This document shows, one piece after another, positions 8,995 through 55,152 of a DNA stretch of 64,000 nt. Below the pieces are notes generated by a model, which saw only the letters and a list, made by a program, of their open reading frames with translations, made no database searches and was not told the DNA's origin. The first letter of the stretch is position 1; each line of letters opens with the position of its first letter. The translations under genes were made by a program, and so were the position numbers. Source of the stretch: a plasmid; sequence record NZ_CP084013.1, one strand, 5' to 3'.

Positions 8995-9405
8995 CTAGGG
9001 GAATAGGGGCTGTTCCCATCCCTTGGAATTCCGGACTACTTGATGGGGATGGGAACGGCCACCGCTTTCTTCAGGCCGTCCCGGTCTATCTGCCGCAGAT
9101 CCGTTTTCCTCGTCATCATCGTCAATCCTTTCTAAGCCTTTTCCTTCTCCTCGTTCGTGATCGATCATGTACGCCATGTCGTCGGTCAGCGGCAGCCCGT
9201 ATCCCACATGACTAGGCCGTATATCCACGAAGGTGATGTGCGGCGGCAGACTACCATCCGCGCGTTGCACAAGCATGGAAGCGGCGCCGCCCAACGAAAC
9301 AAGCAAGGCTCCCTCGTCGGTGATGACAGCCGGACCCGCGAGTTCGGCTCCGCTGTCATACCGGACCCGCAGCATCAGGTCTCCGTTTTTCTTCGGATTG
9401 GTCAA
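8995..9405 (-). CDS. hypothetical protein, paralog of the ORF at 3682-4149; first gene of the minus-strand operon
   Basis: Probable TTG start at 9405, 5 nt after an AAGAGGAGGA RBS. The longer ORF that reaches 9483 would run through the promoter motif and is unlikely. Shares 'GYGLPLTDDMAYM' with the ORF at 3682-4149. Confidence 0.45.
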   Translation of the reverse strand: MTNPKKNGDLMLRVRYDSGAELAGPAVITDEGALLVSLGGAASMLVQRADGSLPPHITFVDIRPSHVGYGLPLTDDMAYMIDHERGEGKGLERIDDDDEENGSAADRPGRPEESGGRSHPHQVVRNSKGWEQPLFP

Positions 9406-9420
9406 CGCTCCTCCTCTTTT

Positions 9421-9446
9421 TATGTGGACTTCTTCAGTATAACAAC
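9421..9446 (-). promoter_or_regulatory. conserved element motif (reverse orientation), putative promoter of the minus-strand operon 9405->2221
   Basis: The plus strand reads TATGTGGACTTCTTCAGTATAACA, the reverse complement of the TGTTATACTGAAGAAGTCCACATA-type motif. It sits about 15 nt upstream of the RBS for 8995-9405. Confidence 0.6.
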
Positions 9447-9462
9447 CATATTGTATTTTACA

Positions 9463-9486
9463 TGTTATACTGAATATGTCCACATA
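9463..9486 (+). promoter_or_regulatory. conserved element motif, putative promoter of 9516-10001 (divergent with 9421-9446)
   Basis: TGTTATACTGAATATGTCCACATA, 30 nt upstream of the ATG at 9516. Confidence 0.6.
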
Positions 9487-9515
9487 AAAAGATTGAAAGA
9501 GAAAACCAAAGGAAA

Positions 9516-10001
9516 ATGCAACCCATACAAGACGTCACAGACGCACGAAAGACCTACACCCTATACGAGTGTGAAAAATGCGGAAGCCTGCGACTCGAAA
9601 GATCCGGCAAGCCCATCACCAAGTGCGCCTACTGCGACAACCTCTCCCTAAAACAGAGATTCCTCTCCGCACTGATCTCCATCGTCCACGAAGCCACATA
9701 TAAAATCCCAAACCCAAACAACACCGGAATCGTCCAAAACAAGGCAGACACAAAACTGCCCGGGAGTGTCGTCCAAGTCTTCGTGGATAACCCGGAAACC
9801 TACTGCACAACGAAAATTCAGCTCGGAACCACATCCATCGACTACTCCTATGATTGCACATCAGGGGACATTCGTATCGTTGCGAAAAATTGGGATCCAT
9901 TCGACTTGGAAAATGCCGACCTCGGTACGGGATGGCATATCCGACTGCTGGTGCAGACATGGCGCAACGAAATTGCCAAGCGAATGGAACTGACGGCGTG
10001 A
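9516..10001 (+). CDS. hypothetical protein with N-terminal zinc ribbon
   Basis: 161 aa, 'CEKCGSLRLERSGKPITKCAYCDN'. AAAGGAAA RBS. Confidence 0.5.
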   Translation: MQPIQDVTDARKTYTLYECEKCGSLRLERSGKPITKCAYCDNLSLKQRFLSALISIVHEATYKIPNPNNTGIVQNKADTKLPGSVVQVFVDNPETYCTTKIQLGTTSIDYSYDCTSGDIRIVAKNWDPFDLENADLGTGWHIRLLVQTWRNEIAKRMELTA

Positions 10002-11155: not shown

Positions 11156-11180
11156 TGCTATACTGAATATGTCCACATAA
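11156..11180 (+). promoter_or_regulatory. conserved element motif upstream of the exonuclease gene
   Basis: TGCTATACTGAATATGTCCACATAA, 25 nt before the ATG at 11205. Confidence 0.6.
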
Positions 11181-11204: not shown

Positions 11205-11795
11205 ATGAGCTACTGGGACAAATACCGAAGCGACGATCCACGACGCATCCCGCCGCTGGAGGCGCCATTGCTCGACTACATCGTGCTCGACACCGAAACC
11301 ACCGGCCTCAACCCGGAAGATGGCGCGAAACTCATCGAAATCGGCGCCGTGAAAGTCAAGAACGGACGAATCGTCGACACCTACAGCCAACTCATCAACC
11401 CGCAAATGATCGTCCCGCCACACATCACGCAATTGACGGGAATCACCACTTACGACGTGAGCGGCAAACCGACTGTCAAGCATGCGATGAAAGAGTTCGA
11501 ACGGTGGCTGGGATTCGAAACGCCCTTCCTCGCACACAACGCGACGTTCGATTTGAAATTCCTCGACTGGGCCACGGCGGAAACCTGGCCGAATCGCCCC
11601 CTGTTCGACCACCCATTCCTGGATACCTTGGAAATGAGCCGTGACATCCATCCGGAAATTCGCCATCACAAGGTCGCGGATCTGATCAAACGCTATCACG
11701 TGGCAGACGTGGAACAGCATCGAGCTCTTTCCGACGCAATGCAAGAGCAAGCCTTGTACCAGATTATGTGCAAGGAGTATTTCCTCGGAGCCTGA
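11205..11795 (+). CDS. DEDDh 3'-5' exonuclease (DnaQ / Pol III epsilon-like)
   Basis: Exo I 'YIVLDTETTGLNPEDG', Exo II 'FLAHNATFDLKFL' and Exo III 'HRALSDAMQ' motifs. Confidence 0.8.
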   Translation: MSYWDKYRSDDPRRIPPLEAPLLDYIVLDTETTGLNPEDGAKLIEIGAVKVKNGRIVDTYSQLINPQMIVPPHITQLTGITTYDVSGKPTVKHAMKEFERWLGFETPFLAHNATFDLKFLDWATAETWPNRPLFDHPFLDTLEMSRDIHPEIRHHKVADLIKRYHVADVEQHRALSDAMQEQALYQIMCKEYFLGA

Positions 11796-14146: not shown

Positions 14147-14192
14147 CCCTAATCCCGGGCATACTGGATTCTATTCTTTCCTGATATTTTGC

Positions 14193-14220
14193 TTGTTAAA
14201 CTGAATATGTCCACATAACA
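14193..14220 (+). promoter_or_regulatory. conserved element motif
   Basis: TTGTTAAACTGAATATGTCCACATAACA, about 27 nt before the GTG at 14247. Confidence 0.55.
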
Positions 14221-14246: not shown

Positions 14247-14576
14247 GTGTGCGAAAAACTAACAGTACACGTGCGACTCATTCCCTACGGTAACCTGCGA
14301 GATGCGGCAAAGCTCCACCATTACGAGCTGCGTCGCAGAAACATGGTCAGGGATGCCGGCAAGGAGCCAAATCCATTCGTCTTGGAACGCTGGATGGTCA
14401 ATTATGCCCGGCATGCGTTGACCGATTACGACCAGCAGTGCCATGACTTGGATCAAGATAGGTATGTCGAGCTTCGGACGGCGACATTGGACGCCATAGC
14501 CGACACGTATCCGCCATTGAGACATGAATGCGAACGTCAGAAAAGAATCCAGAATCCAGAAAAGGAGCCCGAGTGA
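14247..14576 (+). CDS. hypothetical protein (GTG start)
   Basis: 109-aa ORF directly after the motif, with no recognisable domain. Confidence 0.35.
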   Translation: MCEKLTVHVRLIPYGNLRDAAKLHHYELRRRNMVRDAGKEPNPFVLERWMVNYARHALTDYDQQCHDLDQDRYVELRTATLDAIADTYPPLRHECERQKRIQNPEKEPE

Positions 14577-14902: not shown

Positions 14903-15175
14903 TTGGGTGTCGGGTTGGCTGATGTGGCCGCTGAATATGTCCGATTGCACCGGGTCGAGCGGCAGTCTTTGCAGATTCGCAGTGTTAATCGCGTCGAGTT
15001 GACTGTGATACAGAATTTGTGGGCGGATAGGGTCGGGAAAGCTCGATTGGATATCCGTTCCGCTCCGGAGGTGGTGATGCGTGCGATCGAGCGGTCGAAG
15101 CGTGGTCACGAGCTTTTCGGTCGGGTTCGTGAGACTCCCGTATTGGTTGTGTACGAACTGAAGACACTTACCTGA
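14903..15175 (+). CDS. hypothetical protein (TTG start); doubtful
   Basis: 90-aa ORF. Its 5' region contains a partial copy of the motif (GCTGAATATGTCC at 14929-14941), so this may be a degenerate regulatory region rather than a gene. Confidence 0.2.
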   Translation: MGVGLADVAAEYVRLHRVERQSLQIRSVNRVELTVIQNLWADRVGKARLDIRSAPEVVMRAIERSKRGHELFGRVRETPVLVVYELKTLT

Positions 15176-15185
15176 CATACTGAAT

Positions 15186-15210
15186 ATATTCACATGTGGT
15201 AAGATTGTTC
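15186..15210 (+). promoter_or_regulatory. degenerate copy of the conserved motif
   Basis: ACATACTGAATATATTCACATGTGG, immediately upstream of the ATG at 15212. Confidence 0.45.
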
Positions 15211-15211: not shown

Positions 15212-15694
15212 ATGACATCGCAAACTGAACCCTTCAAGATAGACGGACTTACCTTGATGCTACGAATAGGCCACGCCCCACGAGGGCGAATCTCCTATTT
15301 TAGCCCGCAAACCACCATCGAAGAATTCCTCCGTCATGCCGCCGAGCACGAGGGAAGACTGCTGTTCGTCGGCAACTTTAAATCATTGCGAAACAAAATA
15401 GGCTTTAATTATTTGCTGCTCTGGTCACCCCAAAGCGCAATCAAACTCGTTGGAACGGTGACCAATTTCGGAGAGGCATACAATCCAAAAACCTGGAATC
15501 CGAAATCCCACTATCAGGCACCATTCCCATGGGGAAGAACGCCTGCCAACTACTGGTTGGCGTTGGACAATGTGCAGCAATTGGGAGATTTCGATCCGGA
15601 CAAGTTCGAGAGATTGGGCTACAACGCCAAAAAGATATCGCTGGCGGATGAGATGGAAACAAATGCAGCCACGTTCATAATCCGCCCTATTTAA
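15212..15694 (+). CDS. hypothetical protein
   Basis: 160 aa, no recognisable motif. Confidence 0.45.
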   Translation: MTSQTEPFKIDGLTLMLRIGHAPRGRISYFSPQTTIEEFLRHAAEHEGRLLFVGNFKSLRNKIGFNYLLLWSPQSAIKLVGTVTNFGEAYNPKTWNPKSHYQAPFPWGRTPANYWLALDNVQQLGDFDPDKFERLGYNAKKISLADEMETNAATFIIRPI

Positions 15695-15801
15695 CCTTCC
15701 TCGCCAAGGATTCCCCCGCCTCTAAGCGAAGCGTAGGCGGGGGATGAATTGGCGTATCTATATATGTTATACTGTAATCAGTCGTATATGTTATAAACGA
15801 G

Positions 15802-16209
15802 GTGATTGCAGTGGAATTGGAGTCGAATCATCATTCGGTGTTCCTGTTGTATTATCATCTCGTGCTCGTCGTGAAATACCGTCGCAAGGTGTTCGACGAC
15901 ATCGTTTCGGCGCGTGCGCGTGAGATATTCGAGTACATCGCACCCAAGTATGGGATAACCGTTGAGGAATGGAACCACGACATGGACCACGTGCACGTAT
16001 TGTTCCGTGCCCAGCCGAAGAGCGAGTTGAGCAAGTTCATCAACGCTTACAAGAGCGCGTCGAGTCGTCTGCTCAAGCAGGAGTTTCCGCAGATTCGGCA
16101 GAAACTGTGGAAGGAGTATTTCTGGAGCCGCAGCTTCTGCCTACTGACCACAGGAGGCGCGCCAATCGAAGTCATCCGCAAATACATCGAGAACCAAGGC
16201 AGGAAGTAA
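15802..16209 (+). CDS. tnpA: IS200/IS605 Y1 transposase TnpA
   Basis: 'HHSVFLLYYHLVLVVKYRRKVF...EWNHDMDHVHVLFRAQPKSELSKFINAYKSASSRL' contains the HuH motif and a catalytic Tyr, consistent with an IS200-like transposase. Confidence 0.85.
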   Translation: MIAVELESNHHSVFLLYYHLVLVVKYRRKVFDDIVSARAREIFEYIAPKYGITVEEWNHDMDHVHVLFRAQPKSELSKFINAYKSASSRLLKQEFPQIRQKLWKEYFWSRSFCLLTTGGAPIEVIRKYIENQGRK

Positions 16210-17480: not shown

Positions 17481-17512
17481 GCTGTTATACTGAAAACATC
17501 TGCATAAAAGGA
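17481..17512 (+). promoter_or_regulatory. degenerate conserved motif just outside the IS right end
   Basis: GCTGTTATACTGAAAACATCTGCATAAAAGG, upstream of the ATG at 17519. Confidence 0.45.
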
Positions 17513-17518: not shown

Positions 17519-18049
17519 ATGGCAACACTATACGATCGACGAGCGCTCTTCGTGCGCTACAAGAAACAGTCATCCTATCCAGGACGGCAATCGGTCAAAC
17601 TCGCCGACGGAATCACCTGCCGGTATAACTGGGATCTGGATAAAACCATTCTGGATTACATAGAGGAGCATGCCGAGAAATCCGACGGGAAAGTGCTGTT
17701 CCCTCTCAAGTTCAACGTGTCCGATTTGACCGTCAACACATGTAAAAAAGCGTTCTTATGGATGACGGATGACACTTACATTGAGGCCGACATTCATGAT
17801 TCAGGCGCATATTACGCTTACGGCATGAATGACTATGACGGGTTCACAGCGCCGCCAAGCCTCACCATCCCCGAAGCGCGGTGCTGGGTGAAACTCGAGC
17901 ACGTATCGAAAATAAAAACCAAGTTCCCCATCGACGATTACAGCATCCAAGCATATAAGGGCGGAGGCGTCGTCAAAGAAACCCCTCTGCGCGAAATCCT
18001 GAAAACCACTCACATGAATTGCATGTACATCACCCGAAACGAGGGTTAA
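17519..18049 (+). CDS. hypothetical protein
   Basis: 176-aa ORF. AAAGGAAGA RBS. Confidence 0.5.
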   Translation: MATLYDRRALFVRYKKQSSYPGRQSVKLADGITCRYNWDLDKTILDYIEEHAEKSDGKVLFPLKFNVSDLTVNTCKKAFLWMTDDTYIEADIHDSGAYYAYGMNDYDGFTAPPSLTIPEARCWVKLEHVSKIKTKFPIDDYSIQAYKGGGVVKETPLREILKTTHMNCMYITRNEG

Positions 18050-18051
18050 TC

Positions 18052-18378
18052 ATGTCGAAAATCATATCCAGCATCCCAAGCATCCGATACACGGCGGACG
18101 TGGCATATCAGTTGGAACCAAACATCACCGTCCAAGGGACACTGAAATATGCGGGGGGACGTCGCGAGCTGACCGCAAGGACCCTGTTCGTCCACTTGGA
18201 CCGTGACGACAAGGGCAAGATGACGGTGACCAACGTCGCGGTCAGCGCCAGTCGTAAATCCAACGGCAACTCGGCCTTCTACCGTACCGATGACTTCGAC
18301 ATGACACCGGAACTGCAGCGGGCCGTCGATCACGTGCGTGAACTAGTCAACCAGGACTGCGTCGGCGTGGACGACTAA
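18052..18378 (+). CDS. hypothetical protein
   Basis: ATG 2 nt after the upstream stop. 108 aa. Confidence 0.45.
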   Translation: MSKIISSIPSIRYTADVAYQLEPNITVQGTLKYAGGRRELTARTLFVHLDRDDKGKMTVTNVAVSASRKSNGNSAFYRTDDFDMTPELQRAVDHVRELVNQDCVGVDD

Positions 18379-18508: not shown

Positions 18509-21500
18509 ATGCCACGAGGAAACTTCTACCGTCCAGAAAGCTTTATAAGCCCGGCCAGCGAATACGGGCTGCTCCGTTCTGCCACGCCGGATCGCACCGT
18601 ATGGCTGTACGCGCGCATCCCCTGGAGCACTGCATTGCTGGATGGAGCCAACGACCGGAAACGCAACGATGCCGCGCAACAGCTGATGGCGTTCTTCGAC
18701 GGCCTCGCCAATCAGGTCACGGTTGCCGGTATGCGCTACCGTTACATGCTTCAAAGCGAATATCGCGAATTCCATCTACTCACCGGATCCATGCCCGTCC
18801 GATACAGTCCGCCGGCCAGCATGAGGGACACCGACCTCGGACGATACCAGGCGCAGTACTACCGTAGCCAGAAGGTATGCAAGCAGTTCGCGGTCATCGG
18901 CGTTCCTTTGAAACTGGTCGGGGATCATAGCAACAATCGCAAGCCCGGCATGCTGCAACGCGCCCTGACATGGTACGACCGCATGTGCTATTCGGTGGCA
19001 AACGGATGCCCAATGTTCGAAGAGTATCTGCCAGACGCGCATAATATCGAACGAATCATGCTCAACGCCGGGCTGGAACCATTCACCATCATGGATGAGC
19101 AGGAACGCGAACAGCTGGTCGCCATGATGGAATCATGGTGGGTGGGGCGCGCCAACTCGTCGGCCCTGCCTATCCTGGCGGAGAACGCACACGTGCATTT
19201 CTTCCCGGATAACGCGACCTGCGCCCACGCCAAAAACCTGTACGACAATGGCGTGGACTGCACCGAGTGGAATATCGACGAAGAATACCCGGCCAGCATC
19301 TGCTTCGCACGCACGGCGGATTTCAACCAAAGCAGCATCACGGATCCAAACAACCTGTGGATTGCTAGACTCATGGAAGTCGGACGAGCCGGCGGAGCCA
19401 ATGCGGTCGCCACAAGCATCCGAGGCAAAGTCGAACCGGCGAAAGTCACCGCCGACCAGATTCGACGCAACAGCCGCACCATCGACGAAAGCATTAAGGA
19501 ACGGTACGAGAAAGGCCATGAAGCCCCCGGTGATATGACCGAAATCAAGGAGCGTTTGGATTATAAGAAGGCAATCTACAATACTCCGGACATGCCGCCC
19601 AGCATCATTGATCTGAGCGTCGCCACCTGCGTGGCGGGCAACGAGCAGATGGCCATCGACGCTTTGGGGTGTATCCCCAACATCGAGTTCGTCAATCTGA
19701 CGACGGCTAGCGAACAGTTGATGGCGTTCAAAAGCATGCAGGCCTGTTCGAACGTACGCATGACCCCCTATGAGATCCACTGGGCCGCAACATGCGTCGC
19801 GGGAGGAGGCGTGAGCAGTTTCGCCAAAGCAGGCGACAGGGACGGAGCTCTTGTCGGATTGTCCGAAGCCAACAGGCAACCGGTGTATATCGGGACAACA
19901 ACCGTGCAGGACAAGGACAGGCGTCCAATTTTGGCTATTATCGGAGATACAGGAAGCGGGAAGGCCGTTCACATTTCCTCCACAATTCCGGTTCCCCCTC
20001 AGGCTAGCTTCCCCCATGGAAAAATGGCTAAGATCAGCGATTTGCATGAGGGAGACCTCGTCTACGGGCGGGACGGAAAACCTTATCCACTCCTCAAGCT
20101 TCATCCGATTCACACGGAAGATCTTTACGAAGTCACCCTCAGTGACGGTCAAACGATAAAAGCCAGCGGGAACCACCAGTGGATCGTCTCCGATTTCAAA
20201 GATCGAAACAAATTCAGAAAACCAAAACATTTGAAATCCCAACAGCGTAAGAACATGCTGTCGGAGACATACGATGAGCTATGTCGGATGTCTGATGCGC
20301 TACCGGCCCAATCAACCATGAGCGTGAACGAGCTTGCAGAGTTTGTCCATCCAGTAACGAGTCGTTGGTGGAGCGGAGAGAGCAATGCCAAGACCATTGC
20401 CGCAGCGCTGCGATTTATGGGAGTTGAATCTCATCAAGAACAGCGAGACCGCGCGATAGCGGATACAAAAAAACCTTTTAAGACTCGGCAGAACTGTAGG
20501 CGCTATAACACGCAGGAAGCTCTTCGGGCTTTGATTGCACATTATGATGGCGTGGCGCAGCATGCGAAAAGATGGAACGATCTCGCCAGGGAGCGTGCGG
20601 ATGTCCTAAGAAAGCATTTGGAAGATAACTATCCGAAGGGCATCAGCATCACTGACATACAGAAGATGCTCGAGGATCGTTCACCAAGCCGTTCCTCTAT
20701 CGCATCTGTCATAAAAACGCTCAATCCAATCAGTGAGTGGGATACGGAAGAACGAATTCACTCCGACAGAATGCGTCATGATTCGGTATCCGTATACAAC
20801 GTTCGAGAAGCATGCAGAGCCATAGGGCAACGCATGATGCTTCGTTATGAGGGGGCCTTCAACGAGACCAATTCCCTTGGATATTGTGAACAGGTTGTGA
20901 CTACGCGAGACATGCTTGCGTCTGGTCTAAAGGATTCAGGCAATCGTGCGCAATGGGCAATCCGAGCCGCGATGCCTGTTGCCAACCCGCAAGCCGACCT
21001 GCCACTTGACCCATGGGTTTTAGGGGCTTGGTTAGCCGACGGTAGTATCGGCACTGGAATCATCGCTTCAGATAACAGGAATGGTGATTTGCAGCATGTG
21101 AAGTCCTGTCTCACCTCTGCGGGATTTTCTCTAGGAAGCATCAATACGCCGATGGTCGTGAATGTGAAGGGGCTTGTCTCCATTCTTCGCGATATGGGGA
21201 TACTCCGCGAAAAACGCATTCCTGAGATCTACTTCTCGGCGAGCATCGAGCAAAGACTCTCCCTCGTGCAGGGGTTGCTGGATCAGGATGGGACCATCTC
21301 CTCAAATGGGAATATAGAGTTCACCCAGTCCGCCGATCATCTGCCGATTGTCCGAGGAATGGTGCGCCTGCTGAGATCTCTGGGAATCGTCGTTCACGAA
21401 CCCCATCTCAACAAAGCAGGATACACGGCTGATGGTGTGCGTCACGAGGCTCAGGATCGTTATCGCATCACCTTCACGACGGATCTGCCGGTATTCTCTT

Positions 21501-22828
21501 TGCAACGCAAAGCGGCTTTAATCCCTACGACGTTGAGACAAACCCAGCAATGGCTATACGTCAAAGACATCAGGAAGATATCCAACGCGCCTCATCGTTG
21601 TCTGACCGTTGGAAGCCCTGACCATTCGTTCCTCATCGCTGATTACGTGCCGACCCATAATACGATGGCGGCGTTCAGCCTGTTTCTGCAATGGTCGAAG
21701 ATTGACGCGCGTGACGGTAAAGGCAAGACCCCGTGCATTTACATTAATCCGAAGGCCGGTAATGATTTGGAGGATGCGACCCGTTCGCAGGGTGGTACGG
21801 TCATCCGGTTGGATTCCGATGTGGCCAACGGCACGTTCGACCCGTTCAACGTGATTCCGAATGTGGAGGAGGCCAAGGAAATCGCCGTCCTGATGATGAC
21901 GAACATTCTTGGCGGTGACACAAAGATGGAATCCGCCATGACAGCCATGCTGGATTACGGCGTCAAACACGGGGCGCGTTACGTAGGCCGGGCTCTGCTT
22001 GTCGCCGCCCAAGCTGTTGCGAAGACCATCAAAGCGGGGAACACGGCGGAGTCCATTGGGTTGCCTTCCAACACCCTCGAGGTGTTTTCGACAATCAGCA
22101 TGAACCTGAAGGCGAACCAGGGACTACGTCTTATCTTCGGCACCGATAATGACACCAAGCCGTTGACGATCAGCCAAAACCTGACCCTCATCAATGCCGG
22201 AGACCGTTCACTCATCCCCGAAGGCCAAGATGATTCCATGACCGCTCGCATCCGCCAGTGGACGTTGCGAATGGTCGTCATGGGAGCCGGCACCGCCGTT
22301 CGAGGCCGCGATGGCATGGTAGGTGTCGATGAGGCATGGGTGTTCATGGGCAAGGACAAGGGAGCTTCCCGAACCTTCGAACAATGGGTGCGTATGGCCC
22401 GTTCGCAACGATTCACGCCTGTCATCATCAGCCAGAAAGTGCAGGAGTTCATCGATGCCGACTTGACCGGAGGTATCAGCCGCGCCCTCCTTCTGGCGTT
22501 GGACAACCCGGAAGAAGCCAATGGCACGGTCAGTCCGGCCAAATCAGCGGAACGACTCCTAGGCATCGAAGACCCCAATGGTCGGATCTTGCAGCGCATG
22601 GGAGCCGATGATACTTTGGACAACGGTCAGCCGAACCCGAACAGTCTGAAGCGCCTGGTAAGCGCATCGACGAGGAAGACCGTTCGCGGAGCCGTCGCCT
22701 ATTTCAAAGACGGGTCCAAGCAGCCTATTCCAGTGGAAATCGTGATTCCTCCGGCATTGTTGAAGGAAATCAGCACCACTGCCACGGACAAGATCGCACG
22801 AGAACAACGAAAGAACAAGGAGCAGTGA
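18509..22828 (+). CDS. VirB4/TrsE-like conjugative P-loop ATPase, interrupted by a large intein
   Basis: A split Walker A, 'IIGDTGSGK' ... intein ... 'TMAAFSLF', reconstitutes GDTGSGKT after splicing. Walker B 'VGVDEAWVFMG' follows. The extein is about 870-900 aa. The start at M35 (18509) is preferred, because the ORF-track start at 18407 lies inside the upstream terminator. Confidence 0.7.
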   Translation: MPRGNFYRPESFISPASEYGLLRSATPDRTVWLYARIPWSTALLDGANDRKRNDAAQQLMAFFDGLANQVTVAGMRYRYMLQSEYREFHLLTGSMPVRYSPPASMRDTDLGRYQAQYYRSQKVCKQFAVIGVPLKLVGDHSNNRKPGMLQRALTWYDRMCYSVANGCPMFEEYLPDAHNIERIMLNAGLEPFTIMDEQEREQLVAMMESWWVGRANSSALPILAENAHVHFFPDNATCAHAKNLYDNGVDCTEWNIDEEYPASICFARTADFNQSSITDPNNLWIARLMEVGRAGGANAVATSIRGKVEPAKVTADQIRRNSRTIDESIKERYEKGHEAPGDMTEIKERLDYKKAIYNTPDMPPSIIDLSVATCVAGNEQMAIDALGCIPNIEFVNLTTASEQLMAFKSMQACSNVRMTPYEIHWAATCVAGGGVSSFAKAGDRDGALVGLSEANRQPVYIGTTTVQDKDRRPILAIIGDTGSGKAVHISSTIPVPPQASFPHGKMAKISDLHEGDLVYGRDGKPYPLLKLHPIHTEDLYEVTLSDGQTIKASGNHQWIVSDFKDRNKFRKPKHLKSQQRKNMLSETYDELCRMSDALPAQSTMSVNELAEFVHPVTSRWWSGESNAKTIAAALRFMGVESHQEQRDRAIADTKKPFKTRQNCRRYNTQEALRALIAHYDGVAQHAKRWNDLARERADVLRKHLEDNYPKGISITDIQKMLEDRSPSRSSIASVIKTLNPISEWDTEERIHSDRMRHDSVSVYNVREACRAIGQRMMLRYEGAFNETNSLGYCEQVVTTRDMLASGLKDSGNRAQWAIRAAMPVANPQADLPLDPWVLGAWLADGSIGTGIIASDNRNGDLQHVKSCLTSAGFSLGSINTPMVVNVKGLVSILRDMGILREKRIPEIYFSASIEQRLSLVQGLLDQDGTISSNGNIEFTQSADHLPIVRGMVRLLRSLGIVVHEPHLNKAGYTADGVRHEAQDRYRITFTTDLPVFSLQRKAALIPTTLRQTQQWLYVKDIRKISNAPHRCLTVGSPDHSFLIADYVPTHNTMAAFSLFLQWSKIDARDGKGKTPCIYINPKAGNDLEDATRSQGGTVIRLDSDVANGTFDPFNVIPNVEEAKEIAVLMMTNILGGDTKMESAMTAMLDYGVKHGARYVGRALLVAAQAVAKTIKAGNTAESIGLPSNTLEVFSTISMNLKANQGLRLIFGTDNDTKPLTISQNLTLINAGDRSLIPEGQDDSMTARIRQWTLRMVVMGAGTAVRGRDGMVGVDEAWVFMGKDKGASRTFEQWVRMARSQRFTPVIISQKVQEFIDADLTGGISRALLLALDNPEEANGTVSPAKSAERLLGIEDPNGRILQRMGADDTLDNGQPNPNSLKRLVSASTRKTVRGAVAYFKDGSKQPIPVEIVIPPALLKEISTTATDKIAREQRKNKEQ
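19964..21661 (+). other. intein (566 aa) with a LAGLIDADG homing-endonuclease domain, class-3-like (Ala1, WCT triplet)
   Basis: Starts at Ala, directly after the Walker A lysine. Block B 'ASGNHQW'. Two LAGLIDADG-type motifs, 'LGAWLADGSIGTG' and 'LVQGLLDQDGTIS'. Block F 'HRCLTVGSPDHSFLIAD' has Cys in place of the usual Asp. Block G 'VPTHN' is followed by the +1 Thr. GC content is lower than in the flanking extein DNA. Confidence 0.7.
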
Positions 22829-38987: not shown

Positions 38988-40163
38988 TCAGAACATGTCG
39001 GGATAATCCTCATCGTCCACGTCATCATCTTCAACCTCGACAGGAGCCGGCTTACGACGGCCCCACGAAGAGGTCTTCTTCGGACGATGGCGCGGAGCTT
39101 CCTCCTCGTCCTCGTCCTCGTCCACGTCATCATCTTCAACCTCGACAGGCTTCGGACGACGACGGGAAACGGCAGCCTTGCGACGTGGCTTGACCGCGAT
39201 TTCACCGGTATCCTCGTCCACCTCATCATCGGAATCAGCCTCATCGAAGTCAGTATCCGCAAGAAGGGCCGCCTCATCATCGGCCTTGGAAGGCTTTGCG
39301 TTCACATGCTTGTCTCGCCAAGCGATAAGAGCCTCGATATCCTCATCGGTGAAGTCCTCATCGTATTCGAAGCTTCCATCTCGCACGCCTCCGCCAACAA
39401 TCGTGAGATTATCCAAACGATAGCTGACACCGCTACCGGTCTGAGTCTTCCACGCACGTGCCGTAACCGAAGCCTGCACGTTCTGACCGGGATACACCAG
39501 CTTATCCCATAAGACCTTGACTTCCTTGGCCTTGGCATCACGCTCCTGAGCCTCCTCAAGATTGCGCGTCGCCTCCAGAACGAGCGTCTTCGCCTCCTCC
39601 CGAGCGTCTTCATCAGCCGTAGCGTAAGCGGCTCGGGCATCATTAAGATTGGCTTGAGCGGCCTGAATGTCCTCCTTTGTCCCGAGAATCGGTTCGGGGA
39701 GCTCACGCAGGATTCCTTCATCGTCGATGTAGCGGATTCCGGGACGACCAGCCTTGGAGCTACGACTGAAGTTCACATAAAAATGGTTGGCTCGATTCGG
39801 ATATTTATCGGTCATGAGGACGGTTTTATCACCGTCAAGGATTTCATCCTCGTCGGCATCCTTGAGACCGTCATTGGAAACGATACGATCCTTCTTGCCC
39901 CATTTCTTCAAGGCGATGGCGTTGGCTTCCGCATTCTTGCTCAGCTTCTGAAGGATTCGGACGGTTCGCATGTGATCGGGGTCATCCTTGTCGAGAAGCA
40001 CAGGGAACCCGTATGCAGGCGTGCTTTCGTTTTTCTTCTTATCGTCCTTCTTGGCGGACTTGTCATCGTCCTTGTTTCCCTTGAATGCGACCGCCTCGTA
40101 GAGCTTGGGCCATCCCATCTGGATGACTCCGGTTTTCGCGTGAGTTAGCAGTTCTGTTGCCAT
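38988..40163 (-). CDS. hypothetical protein with an acidic C-terminal tandem repeat
   Basis: GGAGG RBS 7 nt before the ATG at 40163. The C-terminus, 'RRRPKPVEVEDDDVDEDEDEEE ... RRKPAPVEVEDDDVDDEDYPDMF', is encoded by a roughly 60-bp direct repeat at 38999-39060 and 39107-39168. Confidence 0.5.
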   Translation of the reverse strand: MATELLTHAKTGVIQMGWPKLYEAVAFKGNKDDDKSAKKDDKKKNESTPAYGFPVLLDKDDPDHMRTVRILQKLSKNAEANAIALKKWGKKDRIVSNDGLKDADEDEILDGDKTVLMTDKYPNRANHFYVNFSRSSKAGRPGIRYIDDEGILRELPEPILGTKEDIQAAQANLNDARAAYATADEDAREEAKTLVLEATRNLEEAQERDAKAKEVKVLWDKLVYPGQNVQASVTARAWKTQTGSGVSYRLDNLTIVGGGVRDGSFEYDEDFTDEDIEALIAWRDKHVNAKPSKADDEAALLADTDFDEADSDDEVDEDTGEIAVKPRRKAAVSRRRPKPVEVEDDDVDEDEDEEEAPRHRPKKTSSWGRRKPAPVEVEDDDVDDEDYPDMF

Positions 40164-40240: not shown

Positions 40241-40265
40241 CTATGTGGACATATTCAAATATACG
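40241..40265 (-). promoter_or_regulatory. conserved element motif (reverse orientation), upstream of the minus-strand gene 38988-40163
   Basis: The plus strand reads CTATGTGGACATATTCAAATATACG, the reverse complement of the motif, about 75 nt upstream of the start at 40163. Confidence 0.55.
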
Positions 40266-40435
40266 CAGTTATCTGAACATGTATATTATTCGGCGTGTTG
40301 CCTTTATTTCCAAGGCGTTTCTCCTTGTTAGAGAATGCTGAAAAACGCAGTTTTCTGCATGTTGTACAATGGGAGCGTGAACACAACCAGAAGACTGGAC
40401 GACACCAGTCCGACCACTGCATCCAGGAGAGGCGA

Positions 40436-41083
40436 ATGAACCAGCTATCAATCAGACGCCTGCGCCAGCTAGCAGGAAAAACCAAAAACGAGATAGCCGA
40501 CCTGCTGGGCATGAGCGTCAACACGTACAGCAAGTACGAGGACAACCCCATGAGCCTGTCCTACGCCGCATACCATCAGCTCATCGAATATCTCGAAACA
40601 GCAATCCAAATCAGGAAAAAACTGGAAAAGGAGCAACCTATGAACACCCCCATCAAAGCGAAAGTCCGATTCGTCGCACCCGACGAAGACGACGAGGACC
40701 GTCTCAGCGACTACACAGTGCCGATCCCCGAAGGACTGACCGAGGAATTCCACCCCTCGCAACCCGTCACACCGAAGCAGCTCCTCGACTGGGAAACCAA
40801 GAACAAGGAACCATACCCGGGTTATTCGGAGGAATTCTTCAACTGGGAGAACGCTTGGGAAGAGGTCAACCGCGCCCAGCAGAAAGCCGATGGCGGATAT
40901 CTCCACCTCTCCGACCCGGTGCCCGTCAGCCCGGAGTTCGACGAGACGACCGGAGAACCCATCACCTACGACGAGCCTCACGTCGTCGTGGATCCGGAAA
41001 GCGGCAACACCAGCGTGTACGTCGACGAGGCTGACATGTCAGCCCAGGAAATCGCCGAATCCGATCCAGTGAACAACAAGTAG
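40436..41083 (+). CDS. XRE-family HTH transcriptional regulator
   Basis: GGAGAGG RBS. N-terminal HTH 'IRRLRQLAGKTKNEIADLLGMSVNTYSKYE'. Confidence 0.65.
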   Translation: MNQLSIRRLRQLAGKTKNEIADLLGMSVNTYSKYEDNPMSLSYAAYHQLIEYLETAIQIRKKLEKEQPMNTPIKAKVRFVAPDEDDEDRLSDYTVPIPEGLTEEFHPSQPVTPKQLLDWETKNKEPYPGYSEEFFNWENAWEEVNRAQQKADGGYLHLSDPVPVSPEFDETTGEPITYDEPHVVVDPESGNTSVYVDEADMSAQEIAESDPVNNK

Positions 41084-42156: not shown

Positions 42157-42185
42157 CGTTATACTGAATATGTCCACATACAGTA
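42157..42185 (+). promoter_or_regulatory. conserved element motif
   Basis: TCGTTATACTGAATATGTCCACATACAG, about 22 nt before the ATG at 42207. Confidence 0.6.
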
Positions 42186-42206: not shown

Positions 42207-43253
42207 ATGCCATCAGCACCTCGAACACGCCGGACAACATCCAGCAATCCAAGAAAACCAGCCAACTACAAACGCAGAGGCTACGCCCACGAGTTCACCA
42301 TCCCAATCGAATGGTGGAGTACGACCGACACCATACAGACGGAACGCATGCGAGCCAGACGAAGGGCATGGGTGAGGGACTACGCGAAAAACGAATGGCG
42401 CAACCTCAAGAAAACAGGAAAAGCCTGGAAAGTGGAACGGTTCATCGCCCTTATAGGCGTAGCCTGTCCAAGCCAGAAAAACATTTTCCCGGCGAGAGCG
42501 GCCGAAACCATCAAACCCATCATCGACGGTGGCAGTGATGCCCGACTCTGGGACGACGATGACAGCCAGCACCGGCACAGCACCGTATACATCCAACTGC
42601 CAACACCGGCACCAGTCAACCATTACAGGCTGAGCGTGCTCATCATCCCGGTGCCGGAATCAATGCCGAAATACCAGATCACCTCACGTCTCGCATCGAA
42701 CATCGACCAGCATTGGCGAAATAATCCCAATCCGCCGGCATGGCACGACGGGTACTCGGTGTCATTCACGATTCCCGACAAACAGTGGATAACCAGCAAC
42801 TATACGGATAGTGACCTCATCGCCAGACAGAACGGCGAACGGAAATCAGCCACATGGGGGAGGGGAGGCAGCTTCGGCATTCGGGAACGAGTACGCGCAC
42901 AACTCATCGAACTGGCCTTCCAACAGTGGAAAAGACAAGCCTACCGTCCGTATGAAAGATTCGCCATCATCGCCGGAATCGCATACCCGTACGGGGTGAA
43001 AACCGCCGACCCTGACAATGCGGCGGAAACGGTGAACACCATACTGCATTCGGGAACCCGCATCGGAGCCTGGCCGGATGTGAACAGCCAGCATTGCAGG
43101 GGAGTGGCTTTCGTACGTCTGCCGAATCTCATGACGGGAAACCATATGGTCAGACTTTTTGTTTTCCCGGTGCCCGAGAATTTTCAGATGGCGCAGAGCA
43201 TAGCCGAAAGCTCCATCGACGCTTGGGGCGAACATGATCGGAGGATGCGTTGA
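42207..43253 (+). CDS. protein with two tandem RusA-like (Holliday-junction resolvase) domains, putative
   Basis: An internal duplication: both halves end in 'PVPE' and carry a 'DxDN..E/K' pattern typical of RusA ('PDNAAETVNTILHSGTRIGAWPDVNSQH'). Confidence 0.4.
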   Translation: MPSAPRTRRTTSSNPRKPANYKRRGYAHEFTIPIEWWSTTDTIQTERMRARRRAWVRDYAKNEWRNLKKTGKAWKVERFIALIGVACPSQKNIFPARAAETIKPIIDGGSDARLWDDDDSQHRHSTVYIQLPTPAPVNHYRLSVLIIPVPESMPKYQITSRLASNIDQHWRNNPNPPAWHDGYSVSFTIPDKQWITSNYTDSDLIARQNGERKSATWGRGGSFGIRERVRAQLIELAFQQWKRQAYRPYERFAIIAGIAYPYGVKTADPDNAAETVNTILHSGTRIGAWPDVNSQHCRGVAFVRLPNLMTGNHMVRLFVFPVPENFQMAQSIAESSIDAWGEHDRRMR

Positions 43254-45139: not shown

Positions 45140-46625
45140 GGCTTGTCCCTGTCCAGCGGTAAAAGCGAGACATTCGTGATGATTGTCTCTCCCGCCTTTG
45201 ATTCCGTTTCCCCGAGGGGTTGCGGTGACGGAACATCATGGGATGGTTGGCTGCACCCCTGCGACGTCAAGCGTGTTGGCGTCGCACTGCATCACGGTAA
45301 GGTCGTAGCCTTTGTGACGCAGGTTCATCGCGGCTATCCGGTCGTCGTTCGACCGGTAGCCGCAGTTGCGGCAGCGGAACGTGTGCGTTTCCTTGTTGCG
45401 GTTCTTGCGGGACACGTATCCGCATCGGGGGCATGTCTGGCTCGTGTACGCTGGGTCCACTGCTATCGTGGCCTGCCCGTTGCGGGCGGCCTTGTATTCG
45501 ATGAACGAGCGGAGTTGGCTGAACGCCCACGAGACTTGCACGTAACGTTGTTGGACTTTCACGGTTTCCGCCGTATTGCGGATGCCTGTGAGGTCTTCGA
45601 GCGTGAAGAGCGTGTCCTTGCCGTACTGGTTGACGAGTGCCTTAGAGACCTGATGGTTGATGTCGGTCATCCAACGGTTTTCTCGACTGCCTATGGCTTT
45701 GAGACGTTTTCTCGCGCTGCGCGTGCCCCTGTGTTGCAACTGTTTGCGGAGTTCCTTGTATTTGCCGCGCCGGTGTTTCACCTCCTTCCCATCGTAGAAA
45801 ACGGTGCGCTCCCCGTCGTAGGAGGTAGCAAGGAACCGGATACCCAGGTCGATGCCGACGATGGTCTTCGGATGTTCCGTGGCATCCGGCGTTGGGATGG
45901 TGACGGGGATGAGCAGATGCCATTTGTCCCGCTTGCGGATGAGGCGTGCGGTTCCGAACCTCCCATGCCGGTATTGGTCGGGAATGCTGGCCCATTCGGC
46001 TTTCACTTTGATGCGCCCATCCATGACGGGGAGGCTGAACAGGCCTGTCTTGGTGGAGTACGAGTAGTCCCTGTTCCACAACAGGTCGGCACCGTCCGGC
46101 GCATACTGGGGTTTGATACTGTAATATGCTGGGATTTTCCTCCTCTTGCGCCTCTTCCCGTTCTTCTTACCTTTGCTCTCCTCGCGGAGGTTAGCGATTC
46201 GCGTGTGGATGGCCTTGTAGTTGGCGATGACCCGGCGTATCGCCGATTGGGTCATCTGCGCGAGCAGCCCATGGGTTTCGCGCAACTGGTGGTAGATGGC
46301 CTTGTTGATTTTCTTCTGGCTGAGCGTGTGCGTGGAGTCCACGTAGTCAGCCACGTCGTTGCAGCAGTCGGCGAACGTCGAACACAACGCTGCGAGAGCG
46401 TCCGCTTGCCGCCGTGTGGGCGATAGACGGACGCACATCGTCAACGTCAACTCAGCCATCAAACCTCCAATAAGACAAATAATATCATAAACTTAGTGGA
46501 AAGAAAAGTGGCGTTCACCCGCGACGACAAGCATCGCGGTACCCCGCCATAAACACTCATGGAATTGCCGAATCGCTGACTCTAGGAAAATGCCGGGTGG
46601 TTTTTACTTCCCGGCATTTTACCTG
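45140..46625 (-). mobile_element. solo-tnpB IS element (IS1341-like)
   Basis: tnpB only. An inverted repeat, AAAATGCCGGG...CCCGGCATTTT, at 46589-46622 flanks the 5' side. The omega-RNA region is expected between about 45130 and 45240. Confidence 0.6.
45236..46459 (-). CDS. tnpB: TnpB (IS605/IS1341 family)
   Basis: 'CPRCGYVSRKNRNKETHTFRCRNCGYRSNDDRIAAMNL' forms the zinc ribbon and RuvC-III motif. Confidence 0.8.
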   Translation of the reverse strand: MAELTLTMCVRLSPTRRQADALAALCSTFADCCNDVADYVDSTHTLSQKKINKAIYHQLRETHGLLAQMTQSAIRRVIANYKAIHTRIANLREESKGKKNGKRRKRRKIPAYYSIKPQYAPDGADLLWNRDYSYSTKTGLFSLPVMDGRIKVKAEWASIPDQYRHGRFGTARLIRKRDKWHLLIPVTIPTPDATEHPKTIVGIDLGIRFLATSYDGERTVFYDGKEVKHRRGKYKELRKQLQHRGTRSARKRLKAIGSRENRWMTDINHQVSKALVNQYGKDTLFTLEDLTGIRNTAETVKVQQRYVQVSWAFSQLRSFIEYKAARNGQATIAVDPAYTSQTCPRCGYVSRKNRNKETHTFRCRNCGYRSNDDRIAAMNLRHKGYDLTVMQCDANTLDVAGVQPTIP

Positions 46626-46649
46626 TTATACTGAATCTGTCCACATAGA
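46622..46649 (+). promoter_or_regulatory. conserved element motif
   Basis: TGTTATACTGAATCTGTCCACATAGAAA, about 32 nt before the ATG at 46681. Confidence 0.6.
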
Positions 46650-50463: not shown

Positions 50464-51213
50464 CAGCGATAGGCCACGATCTTGTTCAGGATTTCCTTTT
50501 GTTCGGCGAAATCACCAGAAGCAAGAAGAATCATGGCCGTCGCTCGACTCCGCAAGGAAAATCAAGTGGACAACACCCTCCTAGGAGATCAAGATCGTGG
50601 CCTATCGGTGTAAATGTATTCACCGATAGGCCACTATCGTTCGTTCTCGTTCTTACTGCTATAAAAGAGTATGTCCAGTATGTAGTATGACTATAAGCAC
50701 TGCCCGTCAGCCCTTATAGGAGAAGCGGTTTGAGCAGGTTCGTTACACCGATAGTCCACGGATTCGGCAGTGATATTCCACGGAAACGACACTGATAGGT
50801 CACTAAAACAGCAGCGATAGTCCACTATCATTGCATGGATACTCCACGTTGCAAGACCATCGTCAAAGGCGATTGCACCGATAGTCCATCATTGGATGCA
50901 CCGATAGGCCACTATCCGCGAAAAGTGCCGGATAGTGGCAGTATACAAGGCATGGAACCGTCGGATAAGCAACGCAGTAATACTGCGGAAGAAAGGTTTT
51001 TGCACCGATAGGCCATCAACAGAGACAAGAAAACAGCATCGATAGGCCACTACGTGTGGGATGAAATCCACGAATCAACTTCAAAAAAATTGGGAAACTG
51101 CACCGATAGGCCACGTGTCGATACAGCGATATGCCATCAGCATCAAAAACCGACTGCATTAAGCACTGATCTGCATCAGCGAATAAGGTGGGACGATTAG
51201 TGGCCTATCGCTG
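50464..51213 (+). repeat. array of about 13 copies of a 14-bp motif CACCGATAGGCCAC, in both orientations at irregular 20-60 bp spacing
   Basis: Copies at 50464, 50597(rev), 50621, 50746, 50790, 50811, 50875, 50898, 51003, 51037, 51100, 51124 and 51200(rev). The pair 50597/50621 forms a palindrome around TAAATGTAT. The array lies 3' of dcm and 3' of the RepA-like gene at 51205-52185. Confidence 0.75.
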
Positions 51214-52185
51214 CCAATCGCCCCGCCCCTCGTCCAAAGCACGCCGTTCCGCCTTGGGTGGGACGGACGTTGGCGACGGGTGCAGGATGATGCCGTCCCG
51301 GGTGGTTTCCACGTTCGCGGCGGGATACACGTCGTGAATCTTCTTCAATGCTTCACGGAACTTGGCTTTGAACACGCGGCGTTCCTTGATGCTGTCGCCG
51401 AAACGTCCGTGCAGCCAATCCCAATCCAATGTGAGGTCGTGATGCAGGTTGCGGAATGTTCCGGTCAGCCACACGTACACGTCGTAGGGGAGCACTGATT
51501 TGCCGGACAGCAGGTAGTTGGTGGCACGAGTGTCGAATGGTGCCGACTCCTGGGCGAGCCTGTCCCACACTTCATCGGTGAGGATGAACTTGGCGCCGCT
51601 GAAATCCTGATTATTGTTATCGTTCAGGAAGCTGACGGCCTTCACCATCTGCATGTTCACGGAGTCGAACCGATCCCGGTTGCCCGCAAACCCGGTTTTC
51701 TGCCTGATGCTGATATGACAGTACAGGAGACGGCGCAACTGTTCCTGCAAACGTTTCGATGACTGTCCTCCACGGGGTATGCCGAGCTCTTCGGACAACT
51801 GGTACATGCTGGGAATCGTGATGGTGTGCTGCGACGGGTCAACGGTCGGGGTTTTCCTTGTTCCCGCAGAGCGAATCTGCTTTGCCATCCACGCCATCAA
51901 CAGTCGGGGATATTTCCCGTAGGGGAAGTCCCTTGACCTGGTGAGGCTATCGATACCGGCTTCGAGGATGTATTCGACGGTACTGTTGTCTTTGCTGACG
52001 AAGTCGGTGCCTTCCGCCGGGGGAGTGGCGGGGAAAAGGGTGCTGGTGAGGATGCTGTGCCCGTACCAGATTTCCTTACTGTCCGGCAAACGGTTTTCGA
52101 TGTCTGAGATCGTGGCTACCCGGTCGAGCACGAGGTCGGTTGAATGGGTAGCTGGTTTCGTGTTGTCCGGACTGTTGTTGGTCAT
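51205..52185 (-). CDS. RepA-like DNA-binding/initiator protein (paralog 2)
   Basis: Shares 'YGK.PRL' ('FPYGKYPRLLMAWMAKQ') and 'YDVYVWLTGTFRNL' with the RepA-like protein at 28896-29945. Confidence 0.55.
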   Translation of the reverse strand: MTNNSPDNTKPATHSTDLVLDRVATISDIENRLPDSKEIWYGHSILTSTLFPATPPAEGTDFVSKDNSTVEYILEAGIDSLTRSRDFPYGKYPRLLMAWMAKQIRSAGTRKTPTVDPSQHTITIPSMYQLSEELGIPRGGQSSKRLQEQLRRLLYCHISIRQKTGFAGNRDRFDSVNMQMVKAVSFLNDNNNQDFSGAKFILTDEVWDRLAQESAPFDTRATNYLLSGKSVLPYDVYVWLTGTFRNLHHDLTLDWDWLHGRFGDSIKERRVFKAKFREALKKIHDVYPAANVETTRDGIILHPSPTSVPPKAERRALDEGRGDWQR

Positions 52186-52362
52186 GGTTCTCTATGGTAG
52201 CGGCAATCAGCGGAATACGAAAAAACGATGTTTGGTGGCGCTTGTCCGGGTTTTCCCCGGTGCGACACGCCGTATATCAAACATATTTTTTTGTTATTAA
52301 CCGTTGATATTTCAACATTATGGCTTGTTTATAGGGTTTCTCTTTTTTGACAGCATCAAAAT

Positions 52363-52392
52363 ACTTGTTATACTGAATGTGTCCACATAGAA
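52363..52392 (+). promoter_or_regulatory. conserved element motif; the downstream region lacks a clear intact gene
   Basis: GTTATACTGAATGTGTCCACATAGAAATG. The next recognisable coding feature is the tnpB remnant. Confidence 0.5.
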
Positions 52393-53285: not shown

Positions 53286-53335
53286 AGGCTGACAGCAGGC
53301 CAGATCCGAGTTCGATTCTCGGCAGCTCCACGACC
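53286..53335 (+). other. tRNA 3'-half-like fragment (T-arm + acceptor strand only)
   Basis: CCGAG TTCGATT CTCGG CAGCTCC A has a canonical T-loop, but there is no matching 5' acceptor strand upstream. Confidence 0.3.
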
Positions 53336-55101: not shown

Positions 55102-55152
55102 CTCGGAGCAGGAAGCTATTCCGCTGCCTATCTTCGGCTTCCTGCTCCACAT

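Follow-up and report, generated by a model that had tools for sequence, protein, structure and literature searches.

The region between positions 9406 and 9515 of the window, by which we mean the whole 64,000-nt stretch of plasmid record NZ_CP084013.1 that was analyzed, separates two divergent genes and holds two inverted copies of a short motif whose 24-mer core, TGTTATACTGAATATGTCCACATA, was taken as the query. The window is 99.1% identical to the Bifidobacterium longum plasmid NZ_CP146883 over 88% of a 21-kb query and 83–86% identical to pMP7017 of B. breve; judged by these identities, it is a B. longum megaplasmid sequence of the pMP7017 family. Copies and remnants of the motif, in which a -10 hexamer is followed by the block GTCCACATA, lie at the following positions, given with the genes behind them.

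9421–9444, minus strand: motif copy TGTTATACTGAAGAAGTCCACATA, left arm of inverted pair 1; behind it a 136-aa gene (8995–9405), then a metallophosphoesterase and a PNK-RNA ligase (Pfam)
9463–9486, plus strand: consensus motif copy, weight-matrix score 44.9; behind it a 161-aa zinc-ribbon-like protein (9516–10001) and a 274-aa protein
11156–11179, plus strand: motif copy before an RNase_T/DnaQ-like 3'-5' exonuclease gene (11205–11795)
14194–14217, plus strand: motif copy with -10 TAAACT, before a 109-aa gene (14247–14576); natural variants carry A at +1
14934–14945, plus strand: 12-nt fragment CTGAATATGTCC within an ORF and outside any promoter context, probably a decayed copy
15173–15196, plus strand: degenerate copy TGACATACTGAATATATTCACATG before a 160-aa gene (15212–15694); its pMP7017 orthologue is likewise degenerate
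15765–15777, plus strand: half copy comprising the promoter half only, TGTTATACTG with an upstream ATA and no GTCCACATA, before an IS200/IS605 tnpA (15811–16209)
17483–17506, plus strand: degenerate copy with block ATCTGCATA, before a transfer-type operon of 176-aa and 108-aa genes, a VirB4-like AAA_10 ATPase and a lysozyme/CHAP protein
40242–40265, minus strand: copy with GTCCACATA intact and an altered -10 (TATATT, gap 7), before an Enc34/DUF2815 ssDNA-binding-like gene (38988–40163) and divergent from an XRE gene
42157–42180, plus strand: motif copy before a 348-aa gene (42207–43253)
46624–46647, plus strand: motif copy directly 3' of an 11-bp perfect hairpin (46587–46597/46610–46620); behind it a DivIVA-like gene, in an operon whose last gene is a Dcm C5-methylase
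52366–52389, plus strand: motif copy with a perfect TTGACA -35 and a 16-bp spacer (11/12 consensus matches), back to back with a RepA_C-family replication gene (51205–52185, minus strand); behind it a tmRNA and 20-tRNA array (52946–58236; tmRNA 52946–53331), all on the same strand
60795–60818, minus strand: motif copy, an arm of inverted pair 2, before a 222-aa gene (60101–60769)
60863–60886, plus strand: degenerate copy with -10 TATGCT and GTCCACATA intact, 148 nt before a 136-aa gene (61035–61445)

Several of the motif-driven window proteins match no family in Pfam or PHROG. As a whole, the gene content behind the motif resembles an establishment and counter-defence set.

The repeat is genuine and well beyond chance. 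At up to three mismatches TGTTATACTGAATATGTCCACATA matches the window eight times and 100 dinucleotide shuffles not once, and a weight matrix built from the motif copies finds 12 window sites at 21–45 bits against a shuffle maximum of 15. All 12 fall in the 10.8% of the window that lies outside called genes and the RNA array, and every one is oriented as the next gene. The distance from motif end to start codon is 12–33 nt in nine of the 12 and 78 nt at 40242; the longest, at 60863, is given above. Behind the 52366 copy there is no protein gene downstream, and the tmRNA/20-tRNA array begins after 556 nt. The arms of inverted pair 1 (9415–9444/9463–9492) are 30 nt long and 93% complementary across an 18-nt gap; those of pair 2 (60793–60815/60866–60888) are 23 nt long and 83% complementary.

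A preliminary description of this DNA had claimed at least 11 copies on both strands, oriented with their downstream genes, and inverted pairs at 9421/9463 and 60803/60858, and had suggested a weight-matrix scan of the kind just reported; the recurrence, the orientation and both pairs are borne out. Its coordinates are right to within 1–13 nt, with shifts from 14193 to 14194, 46622 to 46624, 52363 to 52366, 60803 to 60795–60818, 15186 to 15173 and 60858 to 60863. The copy at 40241 on the minus strand, described as near-identical, in fact has six mismatches at 40242, all in the upstream half. What had been called a degenerate copy at 15766 is a half copy only, ATATGTTATACTG, without the downstream block, and the partial copy placed at 14929 does lie inside an ORF but is reduced to the 12-nt fragment listed above. 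A stated spacing of 25–45 bp before the start codon holds loosely for the nine copies at 12–33 nt and fails at 40242, 60863 and 52366.

The motif itself is not a new discovery, having been described in 2024 for pMP7017. Using RNA-seq and MEME, Dineen et al. (2024; Microb Biotechnol 17:e14405; PMC10832533) found a 34-bp motif, AWAYATGYTATACTGAATATGTCCACATAAAAWA, that overlaps the -10 of six highly expressed pMP7017 genes and has 13 further copies, 19 in total; it was predicted to drive 56 genes, or 24% of pMP7017 coding capacity. Transcript starts at these promoters were placed from RNA-seq coverage edges, and the motif was proposed to bind a transcription factor, none being named, and to be confined to pMP7017 and related plasmids (PMC10832533); our full-text literature search found no later paper naming a binder. 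In the published data the transcription of motif units varies from high to under the threshold, where most cas genes fall; the p0197 methylase is low and the tmRNA highly transcribed (PMC10832533). The consensus over the 127 versions described below reproduces AWAYATGYTATACTGAATATGTCCACATAAAAWA, and the complete pMP7017 carries about 26 copies at a weight-matrix score of at least 17, compared with the 19 reported.

In sequence, plasmid family, position over the -10 upstream of start codons and proposed role, the window's repeat agrees with the published motif and differs from it in nothing essential, the window representing a B. longum member of the family. Comparison with related Bifidobacterium plasmids, which the preliminary description had recommended, finds the same motif on pMP7017, and its view of an element-specific promoter with an added control site matches the published one of a motif over the -10 that is probably a transcription-factor site (PMC10832533). 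To this we add, as far as sequence can indicate, a fixed 6-nt gap, the position of a purine start and the asymmetry of the block, together with the copy before the tmRNA/tRNA array, the swapping of the cassette between genes and a copy in Bifidobacterium ramosum.

The anatomy of the element was defined over 127 distinct versions of the -35 to +25 region, pooled from the window, pMP7017, L001 and IMG/VR loci and numbered with TATACT at -12 to -7. The layout is TG-n-TATACT, an extended -10, followed by a 6-nt gap and then GTCCACATA. Within the TG at -15/-14, G-14 is conserved in 96% of versions, and within the hexamer T-12, A-11 and T-7 are conserved in 93%, 97% and 100%. The GAA at -6 to -4 is 94–99% conserved and positions -3 to -1 vary; GTCCACATA at +1 to +9 is 88–100% conserved, with A+7 and T+8 invariant, and is at least as conserved as the -10. 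The base at +1 is G in 112 versions and A in 15, hence a purine without exception, which is what a transcription start lying 7 nt past the hexamer would show. Overall the conserved span runs from -20 to +12. At every site except 40242 (7 nt) the gap between -10 and block is 6 nt, and GTCCACATA is almost confined to this context, that is, 6 nt after TAnnnT (7 nt at 40242). A weak TTG at 16–17 bp serves as the -35 in some copies only. At 52366, where the TG is also present, the -35 is perfect and the sigma-70 consensus is matched at 11 of 12 positions.

Both the sequence and the published RNA-seq indicate that the upstream half is an extended -10 promoter of the host type, and the preliminary description was correct in reading the TATACT core in this way. 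With ordinary extended -10 promoters of the sigma-70/sigma-A class it shares the TG at -15/-14, TAnnnT at -12 to -7, a dispensable -35 and a probable purine start 7 nt downstream, which is placed here from sequence. Unlike them it has 12 conserved positions between -6 and +9, and the earlier view that the downstream conserved part exceeds what a plain sigma-A promoter needs is upheld by about 18 bits lying outside RNA polymerase contacts. The block is not a dyad: the right arm, ACATA, of an apparent palindrome TATGT-CC-ACATA is invariant in the 127 versions while its left arm (-3 to -1) varies, and the motif contains no internal direct repeat. The leaders downstream are A-rich and 21–42 nt long in nine copies, show no excess of folding energy over shuffles (z -1.2 to +1.3) and match nothing in Rfam, which recognizes only the tmRNA and tRNAs.

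The motif is restricted to this family of elements, as the preliminary description had supposed. Among 72,556 plasmid records it occurs in only five, all Bifidobacterium megaplasmids, at 17–20 places each, and the phage records searched contain none; in IMG/VR, 117 motif stretches are spread over at least 37 contigs, the longest of 171 kb. A scan of 185,579 species genomes (one genome per species, 596 Gb) with 18 specified bases returned seven single matches, close to chance expectation, six of which lack the upstream TGT. The seventh is a full-length copy (score 41) on a chromosome-like contig of Bifidobacterium ramosum with 63% G+C, where 29 nt separate it from a downstream 311-aa gene without a plasmid homologue, the neighbors being a GH2 glycosidase and a DUF4143 ATPase. 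The published statement that the motif is absent from chromosomes (PMC10832533) is nearly, and not strictly, true.

Comparison of the copies at 9463, 11156 and 52366 with pMP7017 reveals the motif as a conserved island in upstream DNA that is otherwise unalignable, and GTCCACATA is kept where the -10 has decayed to TATGCT, TACAGT or TAATCT. Some orthologous copies keep their own bases at the variable positions (TGT at 52366 and at P120542, for example), which argues against homogenization by gene conversion. At the sequence level, then, the motif is under purifying selection rather than a product of recent copying. The promoter and leader also behave as a module. In the IMG/VR loci L079, L035 and L111 the equivalent of the 9421 minus-strand copy precedes another gene, to which it is joined at the start codon; L111 also carries an orthologue of the 136-aa gene with an unrelated upstream region from which the motif is absent, and in L033 and L020 the sequence beyond about -27 of the 42157 copy is unrelated. 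Many pMP7017 copies share their entire leader and ribosome-binding site (GTCCACATAAAATAATCGAAAGAGGAAA..ATG).

Several other readings of the block were tried and rejected. The type I-E cas genes of pMP7017 include no annotated cas3, and motif and spacers are of about the same length; CRISPR-guided binding was rejected in that the best ungapped match among 25 pMP7017 spacers, 15/33, is at chance level, and the window contains no CRISPR repeat. A structured leader RNA or antisense target is not indicated by Rfam, by folding energy or by any stray TATGTGGAC in the window. As a restriction or methylation target the block fares no better, its 6- and 7-mers occurring outside motif copies at 0.8–1.4 times Markov expectation. 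A TnpB guide was considered for the IS607-like element that ends about 30 nt before the 14194 copy, and the flank of this element is not the motif. Finally, an antisense promoter on the opposite strand (TGGACA-16-TAAAAT, in four copies) has its -23 and -18 bases in 31% and 59% of the 127 versions and leaves the conservation at +6 to +9 unexplained.

Candidates for a protein that reads the block were sought among the plasmid's own genes. Small first genes behind motif copies encode no DNA-binding domain recognizable by Pfam or PHROG, and the idea of an autoregulated small regulator was rejected when the same searches over 30 motif-proximal or small proteins of the window and pMP7017 found, apart from weak HTH hints, no DNA-binding domain beyond those of the XRE protein and of a CopG-type RHH protein from the repA-hipA operon. 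The XRE protein (40436–41083), which the preliminary description had offered as a repressor acting through the motif, has 215 aa, an N-terminal HTH_3 domain (3.4e-7) and a PHROG match to ‘transcriptional repressor’; its closest solved relatives are, by a weak match, HipB-type HTH domains. No other stand-alone HTH regulator was found in the window, the orthologue in pMP7017 shares 79% identity with the XRE protein, and the XRE gene is divergent from the 40242 copy, all of which would suit a repressor of every motif copy. Its own promoter region, however, has no weight-matrix match of 5 or more, and the motif lacks the dyad symmetry usual for sites of XRE dimers. What the XRE/DUF2815 intergenic region does contain is another box, ACGCAGTTWTCTG, which occurs there as two exact copies and at no other position of the window. 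pMP7017 retains the one adjoining the DUF2815 promoter, and of the other only a part. This box looks like the better candidate for the operator of the XRE protein, in what may be a local circuit. As the window is about one third of the plasmid, the binder may moreover be encoded outside it. We consider XRE binding at all copies improbable; the proposal finds no support here, and the case against it is a weak negative. More improbable still is a plasmid-encoded sigma factor or single-subunit RNA polymerase with its own promoters. The motif is element-specific and its conserved stretch extends across the start site, a feature shared with T7-class promoters of the -17 to +6 type; yet the upstream half is that of a host extended -10, preceded in one copy by a perfect TTGACA, the annotation of the whole of pMP7017 includes neither a sigma factor nor an RNA polymerase, and the published promoter analysis fits the host consensus (PMC10832533), so that the dedicated sigma factor of the preliminary description is not upheld. 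The least probable reading of all, to our minds almost negligible, is a MITE-like mobile repeat or site-specific recombination site, to which the many copies, the two inverted-pair loci and the presence of the motif at mosaic junctions of plasmid variants could point. Single copies lack terminal inverted repeats, and the target-site duplications that the preliminary description had named as the sign of such an element were looked for without any flanking repeats being found. Conservation is confined to about 35 nt, and the copies all lie between genes, each pointing at a gene from the distance of a promoter. Plasmids from two host species carry the motif at orthologous positions, and the mosaic junctions are located at the start codon or farther upstream than -27, never inside the motif.

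The best explanation, to which we give about an even chance of being correct, is a host sigma-A promoter combined with a start-site element read by a putative plasmid-encoded factor. Each copy would then be a self-contained promoter module, in which TG-n-TATACT serves the host housekeeping sigma-A RNA polymerase with an optional and variable -35. Transcription would start at the purine 7 nt past the hexamer, the G of GTCCACATA, and yield a short, A-rich and unstructured leader of 21–42 nt in which a Shine-Dalgarno sequence is usually present. As about 18 bits at -6 to -4 and +1 to +9 are not explained by RNA polymerase contacts, we infer that GAA (-6 to -4) and GTCCACATA (+1 to +9) together are recognized by one plasmid-encoded factor. 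From its position over the start site, this putative factor could bring some 20 transcription units under common control, among them those for ssDNA-binding proteins, an exonuclease, methylases, tRNA-repair enzymes, the tmRNA/tRNA array and the transfer ATPase operon. The uneven expression of the motif units likewise implies control beyond the promoter sequence. Both the existence of a trans-acting factor and the choice between activation and repression are matters that we infer. By analogy with IncP and IncW plasmids, the units would most likely be repressed while the plasmid is established and expressed in a burst when it enters a recipient free of the factor. Six motif genes are among the highest expressed in steady state (PMC10832533), which means that repression in the laboratory would be partial at best. 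Further points count against a factor. The small first genes behind motif copies encode no recognizable DNA-binding domain, classical dimeric repressors do not usually read asymmetric sites such as this one, a constant distance to the -10 would result just as well from spread of the module in one piece, and the full B. ramosum copy before an unrelated gene suggests that the module can work without plasmid factors.

These points lead to the chief alternative, a strong portable expression cassette that combines an extended -10, a favorable start region, an unstructured A-rich leader and a strong Shine-Dalgarno sequence, needs no factor, was spread by duplication and recombination and is kept because changes lower its output. 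We regard it as possible though on balance unlikely. The leader and ribosome-binding site common to many pMP7017 copies, the joining of the cassette to different genes in L079, L035 and L111 compared with position 9405 of the window, the other breakpoints at about -27, the B. ramosum copy and the fixed -10 spacing all agree with it, but 12 near-invariant positions beyond RNA polymerase contacts exceed the usual demands of promoter strength. The block is also intact where the -10 has decayed, the tmRNA/tRNA copy keeps it though translation signals are unneeded there, and expression of the motif units is very uneven. The same block might act in RNA, with GUCCACAUA(AAA) as a common 5' tag for an RNA-binding protein, a nuclease or the ribosome that sets stability or translation, a reading that we think doubtful. 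It would account for a block whose first base, a purine in 127 of 127 versions, coincides with the inferred start, for the strict co-orientation with transcription and for conservation reaching into the A-rich leader, on a plasmid with its own tmRNA and 20 tRNAs. GAA at -6 to -4, however, lies upstream of the start and is equally conserved, the leaders are no more structured than shuffles and belong to no Rfam family, the antisense partner TATGTGGAC is absent elsewhere in the window, and the non-coding tmRNA/tRNA precursor is tagged as well. A bolder version of a plasmid-encoded reader, which we hold to be somewhat more doubtful than the RNA tag, is that GAA-N3-GTCCACATA is read by a factor unrecognizable from its sequence, either one that binds asymmetrically at the start site and appropriates the host's sigma-A polymerase or a protein that recognizes the 5' end common to plasmid transcripts; together with the tmRNA and 20 tRNAs it would provide the megaplasmid with an expression channel of its own, phage-like and set off when a new host is entered.

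The preferred reading, a host promoter with a start-site element for a plasmid factor, may be set beside known systems. In the kor regulon of IncP-1 plasmids (RK2/RP4), KorA operators lie over the -10 of several promoters, KorB operators are present too, and both are palindromes with known cognate repressors. The megaplasmid motif is similar in being a plasmid-specific site at many core promoters of a large conjugative plasmid (12 in the window and about 26 on pMP7017) and in what would be the co-ordination of replication, maintenance and transfer genes. It differs in being asymmetric and placed over the start site, has no sequence relationship to the kor operators, and is accompanied by no Pfam or PHROG DNA-binding domain in the motif-proximal small proteins, the window covering part of the plasmid. 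In IncW R388, plasmid repressors (ArdK, StbA, KorA and others) hold leading-region and establishment genes such as ssb and anti-restriction genes, which are expressed in a burst in a new host, a transient overshoot after conjugation. Similar gene content lies behind the motif; the burst and the repressor, demonstrated in R388, are putative here. Actinobacteriophages offer repeats of comparable form: the stoperators of Cluster A, mostly within or between genes, stop elongation, the start-associated sequences of Cluster K overlap the ribosome-binding site, and the conserved inverted repeats of phiC31 are dyads bound by a known repressor. Like these, the motif is short, asymmetric or repeated, present in 10–30 copies, locked in orientation to transcription and placed before the genes of a mobile element of an actinobacterial host; unlike the Cluster K sequences, it overlaps the -10 and not the ribosome-binding site.

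To our knowledge, megaplasmids of the pMP7017 type are the only known conjugative plasmids of Bifidobacterium. Reports place them in about 10% of metagenome samples of the human gut, infants and mothers being the main sources. About one quarter of the megaplasmid genes sit behind this single promoter module, and knowing what reads the block would explain the timing of establishment, counter-defence and transfer genes. The module also holds out the prospect of a compact, well-defined and possibly switchable promoter for Bifidobacterium, for which few genetic tools are available.

The tmRNA and tRNA genes of the window form a single-strand array, with the tmRNA first and the tRNAs after it, which was already known from pMP7017, the B. 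breve reference megaplasmid. Upstream of this array, the sole consensus promoter found is the motif copy at 52366 (11/12 matches). The intervening DNA carries an ORF that overlaps the tmRNA start.

52742-53083, + strand: ORF starting MYRDYNAALNILDAAGLAE
52946-58236, + strand: tmRNA, with the tag ANTVSSSRFTLVA, and 20 tRNA genes

At its start, MYRDYNAALNILDAAGLAE, this ORF is probably similar to the C-terminus of TnpB proteins, which suggests that an IS remnant separates the tmRNA from the 52366 promoter. Such a putative remnant would explain why the gap between promoter and tmRNA is longer in the window than in pMP7017.

The motif (a 34-bp promoter element) also has a variant form, and further features lie on or near its copies.

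61812-61835, + strand: variant promoter TGCCTTACTGGGTATGTTGGCATG, preceding the gene at 61842
40263-40275 and 40345-40357, + strand: two copies of the box ACGCAGTT(A/T)TCTG, in the intergenic region between the DUF2815 and XRE regulator genes
46587-46620, + strand: inverted repeat AAAATGCCGGG/CCCGGCATTTT (perfect 11-bp arms, 12-nt loop)
9455-9482, 14186-14213, 46616-46643 and 52358-52385, - strand: opposite-strand promoter-like matches

In the variant promoter GTCCACATA is replaced by GTTGGCATG, and its pMP7017 orthologue (54891-54914, - strand) keeps the same variant block (TGCGATACTGGATATGTTGGCATG). The box has no further copy elsewhere in the window; in pMP7017 the copy corresponding to 40263-40275 is conserved and that corresponding to 40345-40357 only partly so, and the box may be the operator to which the XRE regulator binds. 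The inverted repeat lies directly 5' of the motif copy at 46624 and is probably a bidirectional terminator closing the units before it. On its opposite strand, a minority of motif copies carry a promoter-like match (TGGACA-16 nt-TAAAAT/CAAAAT/TATTTT) that would direct transcription away from the gene.

Beyond the megaplasmids, a single full-length copy of the motif lies on a contig of Bifidobacterium ramosum DSM 100688.

NZ_WBSM01000013, 7885-7908, - strand: full-length motif copy

Its surroundings are chromosome-like (63% G+C), and it stands 29 nt upstream of a gene that encodes 311 aa and lacks a homologue on the megaplasmids. This copy qualifies the published absence of the motif from bifidobacterial chromosomes (Dineen et al., 2024; PMC10832533).

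pMP7017 itself encodes two type I-E CRISPR arrays, with no cas3 among its annotations.

67.7-68.3 kb (17688-18338 of the pMP7017 stretch L003): first array
72.5-73.5 kb (22552-23516 of L003): second array

Only phage matches were reported for these spacers (PMC10832533). The spacer at 72907, however, has a perfect match within pMP7017 itself, at 81718, a short distance 5' of the motif copy at the exonuclease promoter, and the spacer at 67969 matches 4382(-) with 3 mismatches. These self-matches may reflect self-targeting or a regulatory Cascade.

Two further protein-coding loci of the window deserve comment.

18509-22828, + strand: VirB4-like AAA_10 ATPase, 1439 aa
6464-8970, - strand: polynucleotide-kinase (AAA_33)-T4 Rnl1-type RNA ligase fusion with an adjoining metallophosphoesterase

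Residues 904-997 of the ATPase form a homing-endonuclease (Hom_end) domain, which suggests an intein; the pMP7017 orthologue as annotated is much shorter, at ~885 aa. The kinase-ligase and metallophosphoesterase, with the motif copy at 9421(-) as their promoter, resemble the tRNA-repair systems that phages deploy against anticodon nucleases. IMG/VR lists the megaplasmid family as viral, with at least 37 contigs of up to 171 kb from human gut samples, and the family's phage-like content comprises an Enc34-type SSB, a PD-(D/E)XK nuclease, a tail-type lysozyme, the tRNA array and the tmRNA.
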